A stretch of 29,391 bases of DNA, from the NCBI GenBank assembly GCA_045862955.1, contig BTVI01000037.1:1-29391 (forward strand), read 5' to 3'. Position numbers: made by a program. The stretch comes from Fimbriimonadales bacterium. GTDB taxonomy: Bacteria > Armatimonadota > Fimbriimonadia > Fimbriimonadales > JABRVX01. Below are positions 15,001 to 24,000 of the stretch, in pieces; positions within the stretch are counted from its first letter, which is position 1, and every line of letters begins with the position of its first letter.

Positions 15001-18000
15001 TGGCTTGGATCAATGAGAGCCCCGAGCCCAAAGAGGCCGTACTCTACGAAGTGCACCGACGAGGTTGACATGTAGTAGTACTGCAACACATCCCCCCAGT
15101 CGTTGATGGCGGTGGCGCCGGTGGTAGTCGCACATCCCCCAGTGAACTCCCATCCAATACCCTGGCGGTACCGAATCGGAAACCTGCTGCATCCGGAGTA
15201 GCCTAGGATGTAGCCGCAGAAGTCGGCCCGGTTGTTGATGGCAGAGGCTACCATCCCCTGCCAGTTTCCCGGCGGCAGGGGAAAACTTACGATGTCACCG
15301 GTGTTCAGGTCTAGAATCCGGGGACCCGTAAGCAGAACCTGCCGATTGTCGTTCACGTCCGAAACAGGCGAGCCATCTCCCAAGCGTACTGCACCCTGCT
15401 GAGTGAAGATCACACCGGTTGACAGGTTCCAGCCCCAAAAGCCTGAACCACCCACGATGTCGCCGACGTTGTTGATTGCGTACGCTGCGCTGTATGGGTC
15501 GCCGGGCAGGCCACCCAAGACCTCTACTTCGTATCCATTCGCAGTAGGATGCCACACTGCGGCGGTTGGCTGCGAGATGACGTACTGGTTCGGGCATACG
15601 GCGCCCACGATGACGCCGGCGTCATTGATGTCGTACGCGCGTGAGGTCTGCATCCCTGGCGGTAACGGAAGGGCAACCAGTGGACCTCCGTTCTTCGACA
15701 CAGCGGCAAGGAGACTGGTGCCGTCCCCGAGTGATATGTTGCCGCAGACGACTCCAAGCTCGTTGATGCCCGTTCCCGTGGTTCCCGGGCCCAAGAACTG
15801 AACCCGGTACTTGGGCACGTCCGCATCCGCGCCCCATATCAGGCACGCACCGCCGATCAGCAGTAGCAATCGGGAAACCGTTGCCATACTCGTCCCCCCA
15901 AGTCGGTGCTCTTCTGCCATCGGGCTCCCGAGGGCCAGAGGCAACTGCACCCTTAGAACACGTTCGAGTCACCGTCGGCCGTCTCGGGATGTTGGTGCAC
16001 GACCATTATCTCAGAATGGGCTGATCCGATCCGTGACTTTGGTCACACACCTTGCCTAGTTCTCACGGCCCGCCGTTCCTTCGGCAACTTCATGCAGCCG
16101 CTCGACGTCTGTCAGGCGGATGTGATTGCGAGAAAGCGATACGAGACCGCTATGTTCGAAATTCTTCAGCGTGCGACTCACTACCTCGCGTGCCGTGCCG
16201 AGGTCCGCGGCGATCTCTTCGTGCGTGGCGTGCACGAAGAAATCCCCTGGCCCTGCAGTTGCGCGACGCAGCAGGTAGCCCGCCAGCCTCGTAGTCACGG
16301 TCTCCAGCGCGACTTCCTGTACGAGCTGCAGAACTCCTACCAGCGTTTCGAACGCGGCCCCGAACAGAAAGTCGCGAAACGGACGGCAGTCTGCGAGTAG
16401 CAGTTGGACATGGTCGGGCCGCAACAGCACCATTTCGGTAGGCTCCTCAGAAACTGCACTCGCCACAGCTGGCCTACCAGTCAATACGGCAAGCGCATTG
16501 ACGATACAGAACTGACCCGCAGAGACTCGATAGAGCGTGAGTTCCTTGTCCCCGGAGCCGGTGCGATAGACACGCAGGCTCCCACAACCGATCAACGCGA
16601 ACCGGTCCAGCCTATCCGACTCTAGAAAGACGTGCTCCCCCTTTCCGAATGTTGCCCGAGCCGCTCCCTCTCTAATGCCTACCATCGTCCCGTCGGAACA
16701 CTGCCCGAACACGGGGAAGTGCCCAAGGATCTCTCCCACAGTCATAGGCAGGCTATTACGTCGCCGCGGCCTGGCTCCCTGCCTGTCGTTCAGAACCAAC
16801 CGCGAGCAGATGGGCTCGGAGCGGTGCGGCCTAGCGTCGCTGATCGGCCCTCCTAACGAGGCCTCTCAAAAGGTTCATCTGGCCGAGGTGGTACGAAACG
16901 TGGACGAGGATGCGGATCAGCGTCTCGATGGCTTCCTGATCCGAAACCATCTCGTGGTCGAACGGCTCACTCGCCGCGATGCGCCGAGCCTCCTGCAACC
17001 CCTCGAGCAGTCGTTTCTTCAGCGCGTGCCACTCGCTCGGGTCCGGCACGCGAAAGTCGTTGTTCCACTCCGACGGGCCCGCCTTCCGTCGCCCACCTGC
17101 GAGTTTCTGCAACCAGAAGTCCTGCCACAGAACGGCGTGCGCGAGGTTCGTCAGAATCGAATAAGGCGCACCCGCTGGCACTGCCGCCCGCTTGTCCTCG
17201 CGCACTCGCAACACGCCTGCCGGGGTCGGGATGTCCCAGCCCTGCAGGATCTGGTCGAACTGCATCACTAAGGGCGTACGGTTCATGCCTGCAGCATAGC
17301 AGACCGAACTTCGCCTCTGCGCCGACGTGGCACCAGGCGTCGGTTCGTCTCGAGGTCCGCGAACGAAGAGGTCAAGCTCTTCCGACAGCAACCGCCCTGC
17401 TCGCGCGCTCTGCAAGCTGGTGGAGGAGCACTCGTTCGCGTTCGAGTGCGGCAAGCTCCGCCTCGAGAGCAGAGGACCTCGCCTGCCTCTGGCGGGCAAG
17501 TTGCTCCACTGCCTCCGTGATCGCCTGTTCAGTCTCGGCTGCGCGCTCGACTAGCTCCTGCGCGCACTTCTTCACCGTGGGTTCGATGCGTCGCACGAAG
17601 TCGTAGCGGATCCGGCCGCAGCTCATCTCGAACATCTCCCACAGCTTCGCTGTCACCGTGCGTTCGATCCACCTGCGCACAAACCGGGCCGGCAAGAAGC
17701 GCGCAATGATCCAAGCCTCCGGGCTAAGATGGACTTCCGCCTGCCAGCGAGCAAGCGAGAAGCGACTTCTGTCCGTCAGGCCTCCTCGGATGGCGAAGGA
17801 CTTCAACTGCACGCCGAAGGCGTCGGATGCCGCTTCATGAATCCCTTGGAGCGATGAGTCCATCTGCTGTGAGAACTCCTCGAGGACGCCTTCGAGACGG
17901 GCGTTGATCCGAACCTCCTCCTCCTGCCGCCAGGCGCCGAGGATGTTGTCTACGGTGTCGGCGATGCTTCTGCTTGCCTGCTGGAACGCTGCAGCCGCCG

Positions 18001-21000: not shown

Positions 21001-24000
21001 CCCCGAATCTGTCTACCGCCTGTTGCAGCCGCTCGCAGGCGTGTGAGGGCGGGGACCCGTAGCGCTTTGCAACGCGTTGGGGCAGCAGTTCCGCATCAGC
21101 CTCATCATGCAGACCTTGGATCAGGACCCGAAGCCTTGCACGGGTGGTGTCTTCGGGCAGCGATGGACTGCCTTGGCCGCCGAAGAGGTCGCGGACAAGC
21201 CGGGTGAGTTCGCCAGAGAGCTCTTCGAGCATCTCGACGCACGCGCGGGGATCGCTCAGGGGAATGAAGATGCGGCCCCCATTGAGGGCATACCCGAGCG
21301 TAGCCATCATCTCCGCCTGCTCGAGTCGGCTCTGCAGGTATCTGCACGTGCTAAGAACGTGCAGGGCCCACGGCTCGGAGCTGTACTCGCTCATCATCCA
21401 CCCCGCATCTGGCTCTCTGCAGGAGCTATCAGCAGGATCGCGGTTCAGCAGACGGCTCGGCGAGCTCCATCACCGGGTAGAGACCACCAGGATTCTACTC
21501 GATTCGCGCCTAAATGCAGCCTAGTAACTCATCAGCTTGGTACCCAGGTCCATCATCTTGTCCACCATTCCGGGATCGCCCGGCTTAGTGCCTTCGATCC
21601 AGCCGCTCATCGGTGTGATGCCGGCGCGCGTGCTGCACATGCCGCACACGTACACCTCGATGCCGTGGCTCATCGCCTTGCGAAGTGACTTCTGGGATTT
21701 AGCGAGCGCGCTCGGCACCTTCTTGGCGGCAGTGCGCACTCCGCGCACCTGGTAGAAGAGGGTGACGTCGTAGCCACGGCTCTTGGTGGCCTCGGCGTAG
21801 CTGATGGCCATTTCGTTCGCCCAGGGGTCGTCGGTCGTCACGGTTATGAAAAGCCGTCCCTTCCCGGAGCCTGCACCCTGGGCAGTCGCTCCTACCACGA
21901 TTGCCAGCGTGACCGCAGCACACGCGAGCAGGCCCAGGATCAAGGGGGTAAGTGTCTTCATCATACTTTCCCTTTCGACGGTCTGCCCCCGAGCCTCCTT
22001 CGTCAGAGGCTCGGAGCAGCGAGCGATAGCGACGTCCAGGTGGGTTGCCTCGTAGACTCCAGTACTGTCAGAAACGGTATCCAGGAGGCAATCCATGACG
22101 AGACATTTCGCTCTCTTCGTTACTGTCGCGGCGGCCATCAATGCTTGCCAGGGTCTTGCGCAAACCAAGACGTTCACGGTGGGAGATGGTGGTGGCAAGG
22201 TGCCCCAGTCCGTCGTTGTCGAGAGCGTCGCCCAGTTCGAGAACTTCACGGGCAAGACTAACAAGGTCACGGGAACTCTGAAGATCGATCCGGCCAAAAA
22301 AACGGGAAGCGGCAAAGTAGTGATCGACGTCGCCAGTATCGACACGGGAATCCCGTTGCGGAACGAGCACATGCGCAGCGAGATGTGGCTGGACACGACG
22401 AAGTACCCACAGGCCGTGTTCGAGGCAACCAGCGTCAAGCATAAGACGGGCGACGTCTACACGGTCAGCGGAAAGCTCACCTTCCACGGCGTGACCAAAG
22501 CTATCACCACGGAAGTGACCGGCAAGTATGTCAAGGCGAACGAGCAGACCCGCAAGGCCGGGTTCAAGGGAGACGTCGTCAGGCTGCGGGGGTCATTCGA
22601 CCTCAAACTTGCAGACTACGGCGTCAAGATACCTGAGCGAGCAGTGGGCAAAGTCGCTGAAACCGTGAAGATCAGTTTCGACTTCTACGGGTATACAGGC
22701 TAGCAAGCCTTGAAGACCGTTGCGCGACTCTCTCGGGTCTTGGCAATCTTGTGCGCCGTCATCCTAGCCCTGGTGCTTGTCGTCGTGCCCCAGATCGCGT
22801 CGAGGGCAGTCCTTGCACAGCGGGTTCGTGTGCCGAGCGGCGAGATAGCAGCCATTTTCGGGGATGAGCCGACTCCGGTCGGCTCCCCCCAGAAGCTGAT
22901 CATCACCGACGAGAAGGCGTTCCTGCCTGGCAGGATCGAGGGGGGTGTTCGCTTAGTGGACGAGGGCTACCTGGAGCGCACCGGCACCTATCCGTTGCAG
23001 CTCAAGACCGTCCAGTTCCTCGGCAGCCTCGTGGGTTGGGGCAGCGCCACTGGCCTCGTGGTATTCGGCTTGGTCGCCTTCTCTGCAGGCCGCAGGGCTC
23101 GAGCCAACCCGTCCGGCGACTCGAGCCCCTGAAACGGTGTAAGACTTCGTCAGCGAACTCACCTACGACCCCGGCCCGGACGATCCGAAGTTCGTCAGCA
23201 CGGTGTTCAAGTCATAGAGATCCGTTGTCCGACTTGCGTCGAAGTCATCGAAATATCGCAGATCTTCGGACACCGGAGCCGTGGTCGCGCTCAATCCGAA
23301 GGTCACCAGAGCCCGGTTCAGGTCCGAGATGTCTACCGAGCCGCTCAGGTCGCTGTCACCGGCTATCAGCACGAAGGTGCCCAGCGCCTGTGACGGCCCG
23401 GCCACGCTGACTCCGTCCATGCGGACGCCCAGGAACGGTACACCGAAGCCGTGAGCCTGTGACTGCTCTGACACCACCGCATCCGCCGCGCCGTAGATGC
23501 CGAATCGCCCGACGATGTAGCTCACCGGCTTCAGAACAATGTCGTAGACCCCGGGTTGGACCGGACCAACCGAGAAGCCACCGTTCGCGTTCACGGGGAA
23601 GGTGAAGACGTTGCATATCTTGCCGGTGGCCGGGTCGAGCAGGCGCAACTCGTATACCTGCGGCTTGCCGTCTGACAGAGCCTTCGATGCACCGAGCGAC
23701 CAGCCGCTAAGCGCAATCGTGCCCGTGAGCGTGGTTCCCCCGCCTCCCACGTTCAGCAGAGTAAAGTACGGTTGGTACAAGTCGTTCGGGTGTGGCCCCG
23801 CAGCGGGATACACGGTCGAATAGAGCCCGCCCGGCCCGAAGTTAGGCATTCGCGTGTCGTCTGGTGAGATGGATTCGGCAGTCCACGAGGAGCCGCTGGT
23901 GGTGCGCCGGTAATTGTAGGGCAACTTCGGACCACCCGGTGCCCCCGCGTACCACACGATCTCGCCGACGAGCGAGTAGAAGGTGAACCAATAGTCGCCG

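Follow-up and report, generated by a model that had tools for sequence, protein, structure and literature searches.

A probable fluoride-riboswitch regulon with a dynamin-like GTPase, DUF6062, and a candidate CPA2 fluoride exporter in a Fimbriimonadales bacterium

The known fluoride exporters Fluc and CLC-F are usually mutually exclusive; the part of PMC11139923 drawn on here gives ∼3% with both and >85% with one. The same part puts aptamer linkage at ∼15% for Flucs and 30% for CLC-Fs and reads riboswitch-linked Na+/H+ antiporters as serving pH homeostasis, with acidification in fluoride-adapted yeast. In the FRM of Enterobacter cloacae (ppaC-uspA-eno-gpmA-crcB-orf5249), accessory genes add resistance over the exporter's own, according to the consulted portion of PMC5533749. 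The regulon described here shares its aptamer (RF01734), and USP, enolase, phosphatases, and crcB occur in relatives' operons. In contrast to the FRM, the genome under study (G000) lacks crcB and CLC-F, and its switched genes encode a dynamin, DUF6062, a small helical protein, and a CPA2 antiporter. The first three were not found in the fluoride literature searched, nor was any published account of a switched dynamin/DUF6062/CPA2 system.

The window, i.e. the whole 29,391-nucleotide stretch of contig C37 that was analysed, carries two fluoride riboswitch aptamers on the minus strand, both over the RF01734 gathering score of 34 (E values are per one genome). One heads the small-protein/DUF6062 operon (21413..21483; 37.7 bits, E 9.4e-9), and the other lies upstream of the dynamin (19241..19318; 38.2 bits, E 6.5e-9). 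A third precedes the antiporter on the plus strand of another contig (C41:4414-4476; 53.3 bits, E 7.4e-14). No fourth was found in the genome with R2, an aptamer model built in this analysis (next matches, E 0.18 and 0.59); among the dynamin relatives, an Rfam check upheld 14 of 15 low-scoring R2 matches and detected an aptamer in 0 of 3 R2 negatives. An alignment of 18 aptamers had 90.7% of its cells paired, which fell to 37–64% after sliding. The three riboswitches proposed by the genome-wide survey's note are thus confirmed as RF01734 matches. That the C37 pair represents decaying or chance matches, with genes unrelated to fluoride, seems very improbable. Both aptamers stand just 4 bits above the cut-off and depart from the consensus at some bases, one lies within the reading frame of an upstream ORF, and no sigma-70 promoter was called. 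However, their E values are ∼1e-8 per genome, both are kept in the same-genus genome G001, the ATAGCTCC variant likewise lies 5′ of dynamins at loci L239 and L245, and the association recurs across phyla with a clean control.

The aptamers are probably parts of working fluoride ON switches. In the 21413..21483 RNA, the 3′ pseudoknot strand can pair alternatively with the downstream gene's G-rich ribosome-binding region, which, as judged by eye, suggests a translational ON switch. The 19241..19318 RNA would also be a translational ON switch: in its predicted ligand-free fold, an MFE hairpin covers the Shine-Dalgarno sequence AGGAG (19220–19216), which is paired to the 3′ strand of the aptamer; both complementary strands of this hairpin are also present in G001. 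Between the sequestered Shine-Dalgarno sequence and the dynamin lies a 22-codon leader ORF (19138..19206, minus strand), identical in length and position in G001. Its stop overlaps the start of the dynamin, which is consistent with translational coupling.

Neither known exporter was detected in this 97.55% complete genome: the best CRCB match had E 7.1, and Voltage_CLC gave no match at E ≤ 10, in agreement with the earlier claim. It appears improbable that an exporter went undetected, be it in the missing 2.4%, as a diverged Fluc/FEX, or as an MFS relative on contig C50, and that the switched genes are all accessories. The assembly comprises 94 contigs, the C50 protein is akin to fluoride-operon MFS proteins (E 1.7e-71), MFS genes occur in 15/80 dynamin loci (best 80 of at least ∼600), and 52 of 251 phylum genomes lack Fluc, CLC-F, and CPA2, so exporter absence is not rare in the phylum. 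Against this, the same absence is found in G001, G002, five further near-complete relatives, and the single-contig G354, and the C50 MFS gene has no aptamer.

The dynamin-like GTPase (17372..19141, minus strand; 589 aa; Dynamin_N E 1.8e-25) is solitary and the only dynamin of the genome. It resembles Nostoc BDLP (2j68, E 4e-48), Mycobacterium IniA (6j72, E 2e-35), and Campylobacter DLP1/2 (5owv, E 4e-33), its nearest solved structures, in having a G domain and a long helical neck and trunk, and its predicted model (pLDDT 90.3) matches solved bacterial dynamins in Foldseek (E 3e-23 to 8e-13). IniA is isoniazid-inducible according to its PDB title, i.e. stress-induced, as the dynamin here would be. 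In contrast to these proteins, to which it is 19–22% identical, it mostly occurs as a single gene, not in tandem pairs, has a fluoride aptamer 5′, and is fused to DUF6062 in some lineages. No hydrophobic transmembrane paddle was detected (hydropathy >1.6 in 4/88 relatives); residues 450–463 form a putative tip.

The protein belongs to a fluoride-riboswitch-associated group with the P-loop G[EQ]FKRGK[ST], in which the G1–G4 motifs are invariant or nearly so (88 relatives). Among the best 80 of at least ∼600 relatives, a non-random sample spanning >10 phyla, 65 have an aptamer upstream: in 52 it lies no more than 650 nt from the P-loop codon, and in 13 it is on the same strand at a greater distance upstream; in 3 it lies elsewhere, and 12 have none. 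Within the phylum, aptamers accompany 12/20 in-group loci and 0/24 out-group controls. In a quick tree, all 76 aptamer-bearing rows fall within one 101-row branch (SH-aLRT 88, including four non-FKRGK paralogues), against 0/40 rows outside. The neighbours in these loci (best 80 of at least ∼600) are classical fluoride genes: DUF190 18, CPA 18, MFS 15, USP 15, crcB 14, HAD 7, and enolase 6. The earlier observation that dynamin, DUF6062, small protein, and CPA antiporter recur behind fluoride riboswitches reaches far beyond Armatimonadota.

The dynamin might instead be induced because MgFx and GDP jam it, the cell making more of a fluoride-inhibited enzyme, or the MgFx-locked state might itself be a fluoride-triggered membrane coat. 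Enolase, HAD, and histidine and metallo-phosphatases in the same operons correspond to the compensation class in the portion of PMC5533749 used here, and dynamin-family structures trapped with GDP-AlFx exist (e.g. 8eew). The FKR of the P-loop, invariant in 88/88 relatives of a set chosen by that motif, could tune MgFx locking. Nevertheless, we consider this explanation unlikely: other dynamins are never switched (0/24 control loci), and the group is patchy (21/251 phylum genomes) and supplies the sole dynamin in G000, so it is no spare copy of an essential enzyme.

The second switched operon begins with a helical protein of 148 aa (20951..21397, minus strand; alignments A4 and A5), which had no matches in Pfam, NCBIfam, or PADLOC. 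Its unnamed family has 1999 representatives at E ≤ 1e-3 and recurs in fluoride operons (15/23 aptamer-bearing DUF6062 loci). In Acidobacteriota it is fused N-terminally to a second dynamin (at L243 and in three partial ORFs). With a 4-nt overlap, the 148-aa ORF is followed by the 213-aa DUF6062 protein (20313..20954, minus strand), a member of PF19538 (79.3 bits versus a cut-off of 27, E 3.8e-22; Atlas features, 0.96). Its halves are 33% identical (E 7e-8), indicating an internal duplication, and two CxxC...CxxH sets, C20/C23/C58/H61 and C99/C102/C136/H139, are invariant in 23 sequences and probably form a two-metal site. The predicted structure is all-helical (pLDDT 91.4); no matching solved structure was found, nor a function in print.

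DUF6062 is present in 51/251 phylum genomes, 20 of which also have crcB, and crcB occurs in 27/32 same-order genomes; these frequencies roughly agree, on a different sample, with those given before. Whereas the member here is fluoride-switched, 17/40 wide phylum loci have no switch; the 23/40 with an aptamer uphold the claimed linkage more weakly than the 14/20 and 9/10 first counted. A 676-aa DUF6062::Na_H_Exchanger fusion described earlier was absent from these 40 loci and from 80 antiporter loci (best 80 of at least ∼600). The fusions found are dynamin::DUF6062 (L141, L248, P0151), and DUF6062 adjoins the antiporter in only 3 of the same 80 loci, so its proposed role as the antiporter's cytoplasmic partner is unsupported.

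Between the operons, a Zn-ribbon/HEAT-repeat gene (19816..20301, plus strand; HEAT_2 E 1.2e-8) lies on the opposite strand and is therefore outside the control of either switch. Its relatives occur inside fluoride operons elsewhere (L132, L138, L146, L152) and in 9/80 dynamin loci (best 80 of at least ∼600; the HMM may catch generic HEAT proteins). A Zn-ribbon ORF (19219..19857, minus strand; weak zinc-ribbon matches only) carries a hydrophobic stretch at its C-terminal end, and its frame continues through the second aptamer. It is a probable passenger; among 56 sources it has a relative in G001 alone, with a differing C-terminal end. Downstream of the dynamin, a DinB/MST-like gene (16831..17286, minus strand, likely start 17286; DinB_2/MST E ∼2e-5) is a passenger outside the module, with a relative only in G001 among the 56.

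The C41 antiporter (Na_H_Exchanger, E 1.8e-34) has NapA (4bwz, 5bz3; E 1e-18) and KefC (8bxg; E 7e-14) as nearest solved relatives and keeps the TM4 T-S and the equivalents of D157 (38/40) and K305 (40/40) of cation/H+ antiporters. In contrast to these relatives, PRGE is replaced by an invariant TGLTF, with G/T for R331/E333 in 40/40; the D156 equivalent is N/T/S and never Asp (0/40); C158-F159, Y137, K215, and R261 are invariant; and the protein lacks a KTN domain and falls under the TIGR00932, KefB, and KefC cut-offs. Electroneutral CPAs typically have an N-D pair. An aptamer lies directly upstream at 14/14 loci of one set and 63/80 of a larger one, and at any distance upstream in 70/80 (best 80 of at least ∼600, including L366, added back).

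Among 251 near-complete phylum genomes, Fluc and CLC-F-like genes are both absent from 24/30 CPA2 carriers versus 52/221 non-carriers (stratified by family, p = 0.0016, with the f36 cell partly assumed; by genus, p = 0.011; the genomes are related, 8/30 carriers coming from one genus). Both are missing from 7/7 order-level relatives with a switched CPA2 (94–99% complete) and from 13 of the 19 CPA2 genomes with the longest contigs, including the single-contig 4.9-Mb G354. As a positive control, core CLC-F shares a genome with crcB in 1/25 and with CPA2 in 0/25. Like Fluc and CLC-F as portrayed in the consulted part of PMC11139923, CPA2 is thus a riboswitch-led membrane protein with similar exclusion, whereas its NhaA/CPA2 fold is unrelated and matches neither CRCB nor CLC. 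Its exclusion is leakier than that of CLC-F: crcB occurs in 6/30 CPA2 phylum genomes and 7/80 CPA2 loci (best 80 of at least ∼600). The idea that the module replaces Fluc/CLC-F is supported by distribution for the antiporter and is unsupported for the whole module, as known exporters are present in 25/30 DUF6062 and 7/11 dynamin genomes without the antiporter. The accessory genes go with Fluc, CLC-F, or CPA2 alike and are no substitute for Fluc.

CPA2 could also be an ordinary electroneutral Na+(K+)/H+ antiporter that moves no fluoride and, under fluoride, lowers or steadies the pH gradient; less F− would therefore be trapped through HF entry, a partial substitute for export. We regard this as a serious contender at somewhat under even odds. 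It fits the pH-homeostasis interpretation in the cited part of PMC11139923, the retained D157 and K305 equivalents, the crcB-bearing loci, and the lack of exclusion among 50 dynamin-bearing MAGs without completeness figures (exporters in 7/17 CPA2 carriers and 14/33 non-carriers, p = 1.0). However, a helper would be expected alongside exporters, where DUF6062 and the dynamin are indeed found, and CPA2 avoids them; its aptamer linkage (70/80, best of at least ∼600) far exceeds that of Flucs and CLC-Fs in the part of PMC11139923 quoted above; a separate, unswitched Na_H_Exchanger is present in G000; and the crossover charges R331/E333 are lost across the family.

We favour a two-arm fluoride regulon, with a probability of roughly 0.7, a figure that covers the regulon and not the export chemistry. 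At all three RNAs, F−/Mg2+ would stabilise the pseudoknot and free the ribosome-binding site. In the accessory arm, contained in the window, the BDLP/IniA-like dynamin would be made under fluoride stress, as its regulation suggests, and, by analogy with its family, might polymerise on the inner membrane, limiting proton/HF leak and keeping up the membrane potential; we rate this role at even odds. DUF6062 and the small helical protein would be its soluble partners, as the fusions suggest. In the primary arm, the CPA2-fold transporter takes the slot that Fluc or CLC-F occupies in relatives. Our leading, still tentative proposal for its chemistry is proton-coupled F− export, in which protons would be carried by the retained TM5 aspartate and the anion would bind at the uncompensated helix crossover. 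By its distribution, this CPA2 family is a candidate and may represent a third type of fluoride exporter in bacteria.

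Three fluoride riboswitches are present in this Fimbriimonadales genome (3.36 Mb in 94 contigs, 97.55% complete), as the genome-wide survey's note had stated, and all score above the gathering cut-off of 34 bits of the Rfam covariance model RF01734. The aptamer at C37:19241-19318(-) (38.2 bits) precedes a 22-codon leader ORF that is coupled to the gene of a 589-amino acid dynamin-like GTPase (17372-19141(-)). The aptamer at C37:21413-21483(-) (37.7 bits) precedes the gene of a 148-amino acid protein (20951-21397(-); the small protein), which overlaps the DUF6062 gene (20313-20954(-)). 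The third aptamer, on another contig (C41:4414-4476(+), 53.3 bits), leads the gene of a 411-amino acid CPA2-type transporter. A genome of the same genus, G001, keeps all three arrangements, and the GC content of the module (62.1%) is in line with that of the genome (62.7%). In an alignment of 18 aptamers, the P1, pseudoknot, and P3 pairs are present, with standard pairs in 90.7% of the pair cells compared with 37–64% in a slid-partner control on the same alignment. The pseudoknot cells are paired in 96.7%, and P1 reaches only 77.8%, since some rows are displaced by one alignment column. Our own aptamer model, R2, was built on 18 aptamers including the three of this genome, whose matches to it hold by construction.

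The three aptamers lie in the 5′ UTR, 15–34 nt ahead of the start codon, and each overlaps a predicted expression platform. In the predicted free fold of the dynamin and CPA2 leaders, the 3′ strand of the pseudoknot pairs with the Shine-Dalgarno sequence, and a predicted helix masking the Shine-Dalgarno sequence of the small-protein leader was recognized by eye. Many relatives carry a terminator over the same 3′ pseudoknot strand instead (also by eye). We infer that fluoride would induce these genes at the level of translation in this genome. A promoter scan found no σ70 site; −10-like hexamers ahead of both C37 aptamers were seen by eye only. Four public sequencing runs, three of them probably of DNA, yielded just sparse, short contigs and nothing that bears on expression. 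An ORF encoding a Zn-ribbon and a hydrophobic tail (19219-19857(-)) crosses the dynamin promoter region and aptamer in both this genome and G001, with an end that differs between the two, and its translation through the aptamer could affect switching. In relatives, multiple or back-to-back fluoride aptamers surround the dynamin gene, with up to four per 9.6 kb (loci L178, L188, L199, L208, L232, L240, and L242).

The link between the C41 transporter and the riboswitch recurs in its relatives. An aptamer accompanies CPA2 in 14 of 20 loci searched with the Rfam model, in 14 of 14 loci of a second set, and in 70 of 80 loci of the largest set, where it lies directly upstream in 63 and farther upstream in 7, with 10 remaining. 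Compared with the electrogenic Na+/H+ antiporter NapA, the CPA2 clade lacks the Asp-Asp pair of TM5: the position of Asp-156 is asparagine in 24, threonine in 15, and serine in 1 of 40 relatives, whereas the second aspartate (Asp-157) is kept in 38 of 40. In NhaA, Na+ binding is impaired when the first aspartate is missing (PMC9408914). The TM10 lysine of NapA (Lys-305) is retained as Lys-303 in CPA2 (40/40), whereas the TM11 motif PRGE is replaced by TGLTF, with loss of Arg-331 and Glu-333 (40/40). In other carriers with the NhaA fold, an uncompensated helix crossover binds anions; some cation exchangers likewise lack crossover charges of the Arg-331/Glu-333 type. In contrast to the K+ efflux proteins KefB/KefC, the 411-residue CPA2 protein consists of a single Pfam domain without a C-terminal KTN domain, and it does not reach the KefB/KefC family cut-off (50 versus 752 bits).

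CPA2 would be the primary fluoride defense of the module. That it acts by F−/H+ export is a tentative reading, to which we give somewhat less than an even chance. Na+/H+ antiporters behind fluoride riboswitches are already known as the second most common gene class linked to them and are read as serving pH homeostasis (PMC11139923), a reading for which we found no published test. Accordingly phrased for CPA2, the transporter would act by lowering the pH gradient, a possibility that we likewise place a little short of even odds.

Only two prokaryotic fluoride exporters, Fluc (crcB) and CLC-F, have been described, and up to 15% of the genomes surveyed in PMC11139923 have neither. The genome studied here appears to be such a case, as had been noted: a six-frame search found no CRCB domain (best E 7.1) and no match to Voltage_CLC. 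The genome-wide survey's note had further proposed that the CPA-type transporter of the module, with DUF6062 as its partner, stands in for Fluc/CLC-F. In a sample of 251 Armatimonadota genomes, each at least 90% complete, crcB is found in 148, any CLC in 117, a CLC-F-like gene in 48, CPA2 in 30, and a dynamin of the group tied to fluoride aptamers (the in-group) in 21. Core CLC-F genes, defined by at least 45% identity to a riboswitch-led CLC that bears the GNNLI and GEVTP signatures, occur together with crcB in 1 of 25, matching the published exclusion (PMC11139923). Both known exporters are missing from 24 of the 30 CPA2 carriers versus 52 of the 221 non-carriers; stratified, the association has p = 0.0016 over eight families, with one cell partly assumed, and p = 0.011 by genus. 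Genomes without CPA2 mostly keep a known exporter when they carry DUF6062 (25/30) or the dynamin (7/11), so the exclusion signal belongs to CPA2. CPA2 is the candidate for the exporter slot, and DUF6062 and the dynamin were rejected as exporter substitutes.

Both exporters are also missing from all 7 order-level relatives with a riboswitch-led CPA2, and 14 genomes of other phyla contain crcB in 3 cases and a CLC-F-like gene in none. Among the 19 genomes with the longest contigs, drawn from the 80 further CPA2 loci, 13 have neither exporter and 5 have crcB, which was visible in the locus itself in 4 and came from a search in the fifth; the remaining genome has a distant CLC-F-like gene. The single-contig genome G354 combines riboswitch, CPA2, and dynamin and has neither exporter. 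Mutual exclusion is seen in near-complete genomes but not in 50 dynamin-bearing MAGs, where a known exporter is present in 7 of 17 CPA2 carriers and 14 of 33 non-carriers; these MAGs, whose completeness is not given, represent 50 of the 80 dynamin loci (L220–L249 left out), and two or more of them also belong to the phylum sample. Of the 80 CPA2 loci, 7 include crcB, and five of these 7 seem to come from Acidobacteriota. At L168, in genome G043, the CPA2 gene is broken into three ORFs within a crcB-led operon, which is consistent with its decay in the presence of Fluc. Fluc, CLC-F-like genes, and CPA2 are all missing from 52 of the 251 genomes, and four families (f13, f20, f23, and f28) mostly lack all three, which leaves room for further fluoride defenses. 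An MFS gene on a further contig of our genome (C50:14513-15790) is related to the MFS of fluoride operons (E 1.7e-71) and has no aptamer. A 75-amino acid hydrophobic protein without a Pfam domain also recurs in fluoride operons (L136:8244-8471, L133, L164, and L338).

The dynamin is tied to fluoride aptamers well beyond this phylum. We scanned with R2 the best 80 of at least 606 relatives, selected by P-loop motif from one-per-species genomes and covering more than 10 phyla and three archaeal records. In 52 loci the aptamer and the P-loop codon are no more than 650 nt apart; the aptamer is farther upstream on the same strand in 13 and elsewhere in 3, and 12 have none. The Rfam model confirmed 14 of 15 low-scoring positives of R2 and 0 of 3 negatives. 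For the 251 phylum genomes, in-group dynamin loci were compared with out-group loci as a control: an aptamer is present in 12 of the 20 former (1.5-kb flanks; our genome excluded and one truncated ORF included) and in 0 of the 24 distinct latter. A quickly built tree of 141 G domains, after removal of five duplicate loci, places all 76 aptamer-bearing rows in one branch of 101 rows whose SH-aLRT support of 88 is not strong, and none of the 40 rows outside it bears an aptamer. The P-loop FKRGK alone was ruled out as a group marker, because an out-group dynamin at L284 has it without an aptamer. The 80 loci also contain DUF190 (18), CPA (18), MFS (15), USP (15), crcB (14), DUF6062 (12), the small protein (11), HEAT (9), HAD (7), enolase (6), and metallophosphoesterase (4) genes.

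The GTPase motifs G1–G4 are intact in the relatives (GxFKRGK[ST], Thr-80, DTPG, Lys-206, and Asp-208 in 88/88; Asn-205 in 87/88). The G domain is followed by a helical neck and trunk (model helices 276–442 and 485–588; pLDDT 90.3), and BDLP and IniA rank first in a fold search with the model as the nearest structures. No TM-like segment that could serve as a membrane paddle was found in the model or the relatives' alignment; residues 450–463 at the tip of the trunk have pLDDT <50, with aromatic/aliphatic conservation at Phe-461, 462–463, and Leu-483–Pro-484. We give an even chance to the view that the dynamin protects the membrane under fluoride. That it is instead an enzyme trapped by metal fluoride appears unlikely, at about half that weight. 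Membership in the anti-phage Eleos/LeoABC systems or the DynA family was rejected: the genome has a single dynamin, which misses the family cut-offs (NF041922, 20 versus 325 bits; NF052648, 70 versus 1600), and the PADLOC LeoA/LeoBC matches are generic and stem from one protein only. Acidobacteriota-type operons (L226, L238, L241, L243, L367, and L372) contain a second dynamin with the P-loop GRVS[SC]GKS, fused to a small helical domain and located beside crcB and tandem DUF190 genes.

DUF6062 (79.3 bits versus a Pfam gathering cut-off of 27) is internally duplicated, and its two CxxC...CxxH sets are invariant. Its model is all-helical (pLDDT 91.4); Foldseek returned no solved match at E ≤ 0.001, which does not show a new fold, and the best match in a VIA search reached Z 4.6 (rmsd 4.8, 114 residues aligned). 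DUF6062 occurs in 51 of the 251 genomes and in 21 of the 30 with CPA2. Among 40 wide loci, all from this phylum, 23 have an aptamer and 17 do not, so that DUF6062 has a fluoride-independent context as well; nine aptamer-less loci (L145, L147–L151, L157, L161, and L163) have in common an upstream ORF of ∼250 residues without a Pfam domain, some beside DUF58. As to the earlier suggestion that DUF6062 is the partner of the antiporter, DUF6062 is present in only 3 of 80 CPA2 loci, and the reported fusion of the two was not seen in these or in the 40 wide DUF6062 loci. A crowded search for DUF6062 fusions among 8000 longer candidate proteins gave a single match, a dynamin fusion, which speaks weakly against a CPA fusion. 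DUF6062 is fused to the C terminus of the dynamin at L141 (full length), at L248 (without the stalk), and in protein P0151. The small protein belongs to a nameless family of 1999 representatives (∼2000 clusters), to which the Atlas assigns no family (best 0.82). It lies between CPA2 and enolase in Bacteroidales and is fused to the second dynamin in Acidobacteriota. DUF6062 and the small protein are therefore better read as probable partners of the dynamin. The DinB-like gene (16831-17286(-)) and the Zn-ribbon genes were rejected as module members; the Zn-ribbon-HEAT gene (19816-20301(+)), which relatives carry inside the operon, has the opposite orientation here.

Elsewhere in the window, a dispersed palindromic repeat family (47-968 and 9456-9726), with arms of 27–28 nt and complementarity of up to 100%, is accompanied by larger direct duplications of 151 and 217 nt. 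It yields sub-threshold matches to Rfam RF02901 and is REP/MITE-like. A sub-threshold Rfam tmRNA match at 1066-1141 covers the tRNA-like part of that model and was rejected in favor of the tRNA-Ala(CGC) that ARAGORN places there on the forward strand.

The riboswitch class is real and ordinary; the components that it controls here were not found in print. Accessory genes that add fluoride resistance are known from Enterobacter cloacae FRM (PMC5533749). The portions of PMC2864571 and PMC7266159 available to us do not mention dynamins, and the accessible supplements of Weinberg 2010 have no match for dynamin, COG0699, pfam00350, or COG0475; the antiporter COG itself is missing there, so their gene tables may not be searchable. 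Our search of the open literature found nothing on fluoride-regulated dynamins, DUF6062, or fluoride export by CPA2; Baker 2012, outside that search, could list such genes.

From the directly established aptamers, gene content, co-occurrence, and motifs, we propose jointly, with a probability of roughly 0.35, a third exporter class and a dynamin dedicated to fluoride. The former would be the riboswitch-led CPA2 clade (TM5 CF[VI][NT]D, TM11 STGLTF), mis-read as a Na+/H+ antiporter and predicted to be a branch of the cation/proton antiporter fold that transports anions; the latter, spanning bacteria to archaea, would protect the membrane under regulation by DUF6062, a putative two-metal-site regulator. 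CLC-F, a mis-annotated transporter, was brought to light by the same riboswitch (PMC7266159), and this precedent keeps the question of a CPA2 exporter live. CPA2 is a directly testable candidate for the third exporter, and the second most common riboswitch-linked class now has a defined clade and motif. Microbial PFAS defluorination is limited by fluoride tolerance. DUF6062 and the small-protein family obtain their first context. For most bacterial dynamins we know of no inducer, and a widespread group of dynamins tied to one small ion offers a direct route to their physiological role.
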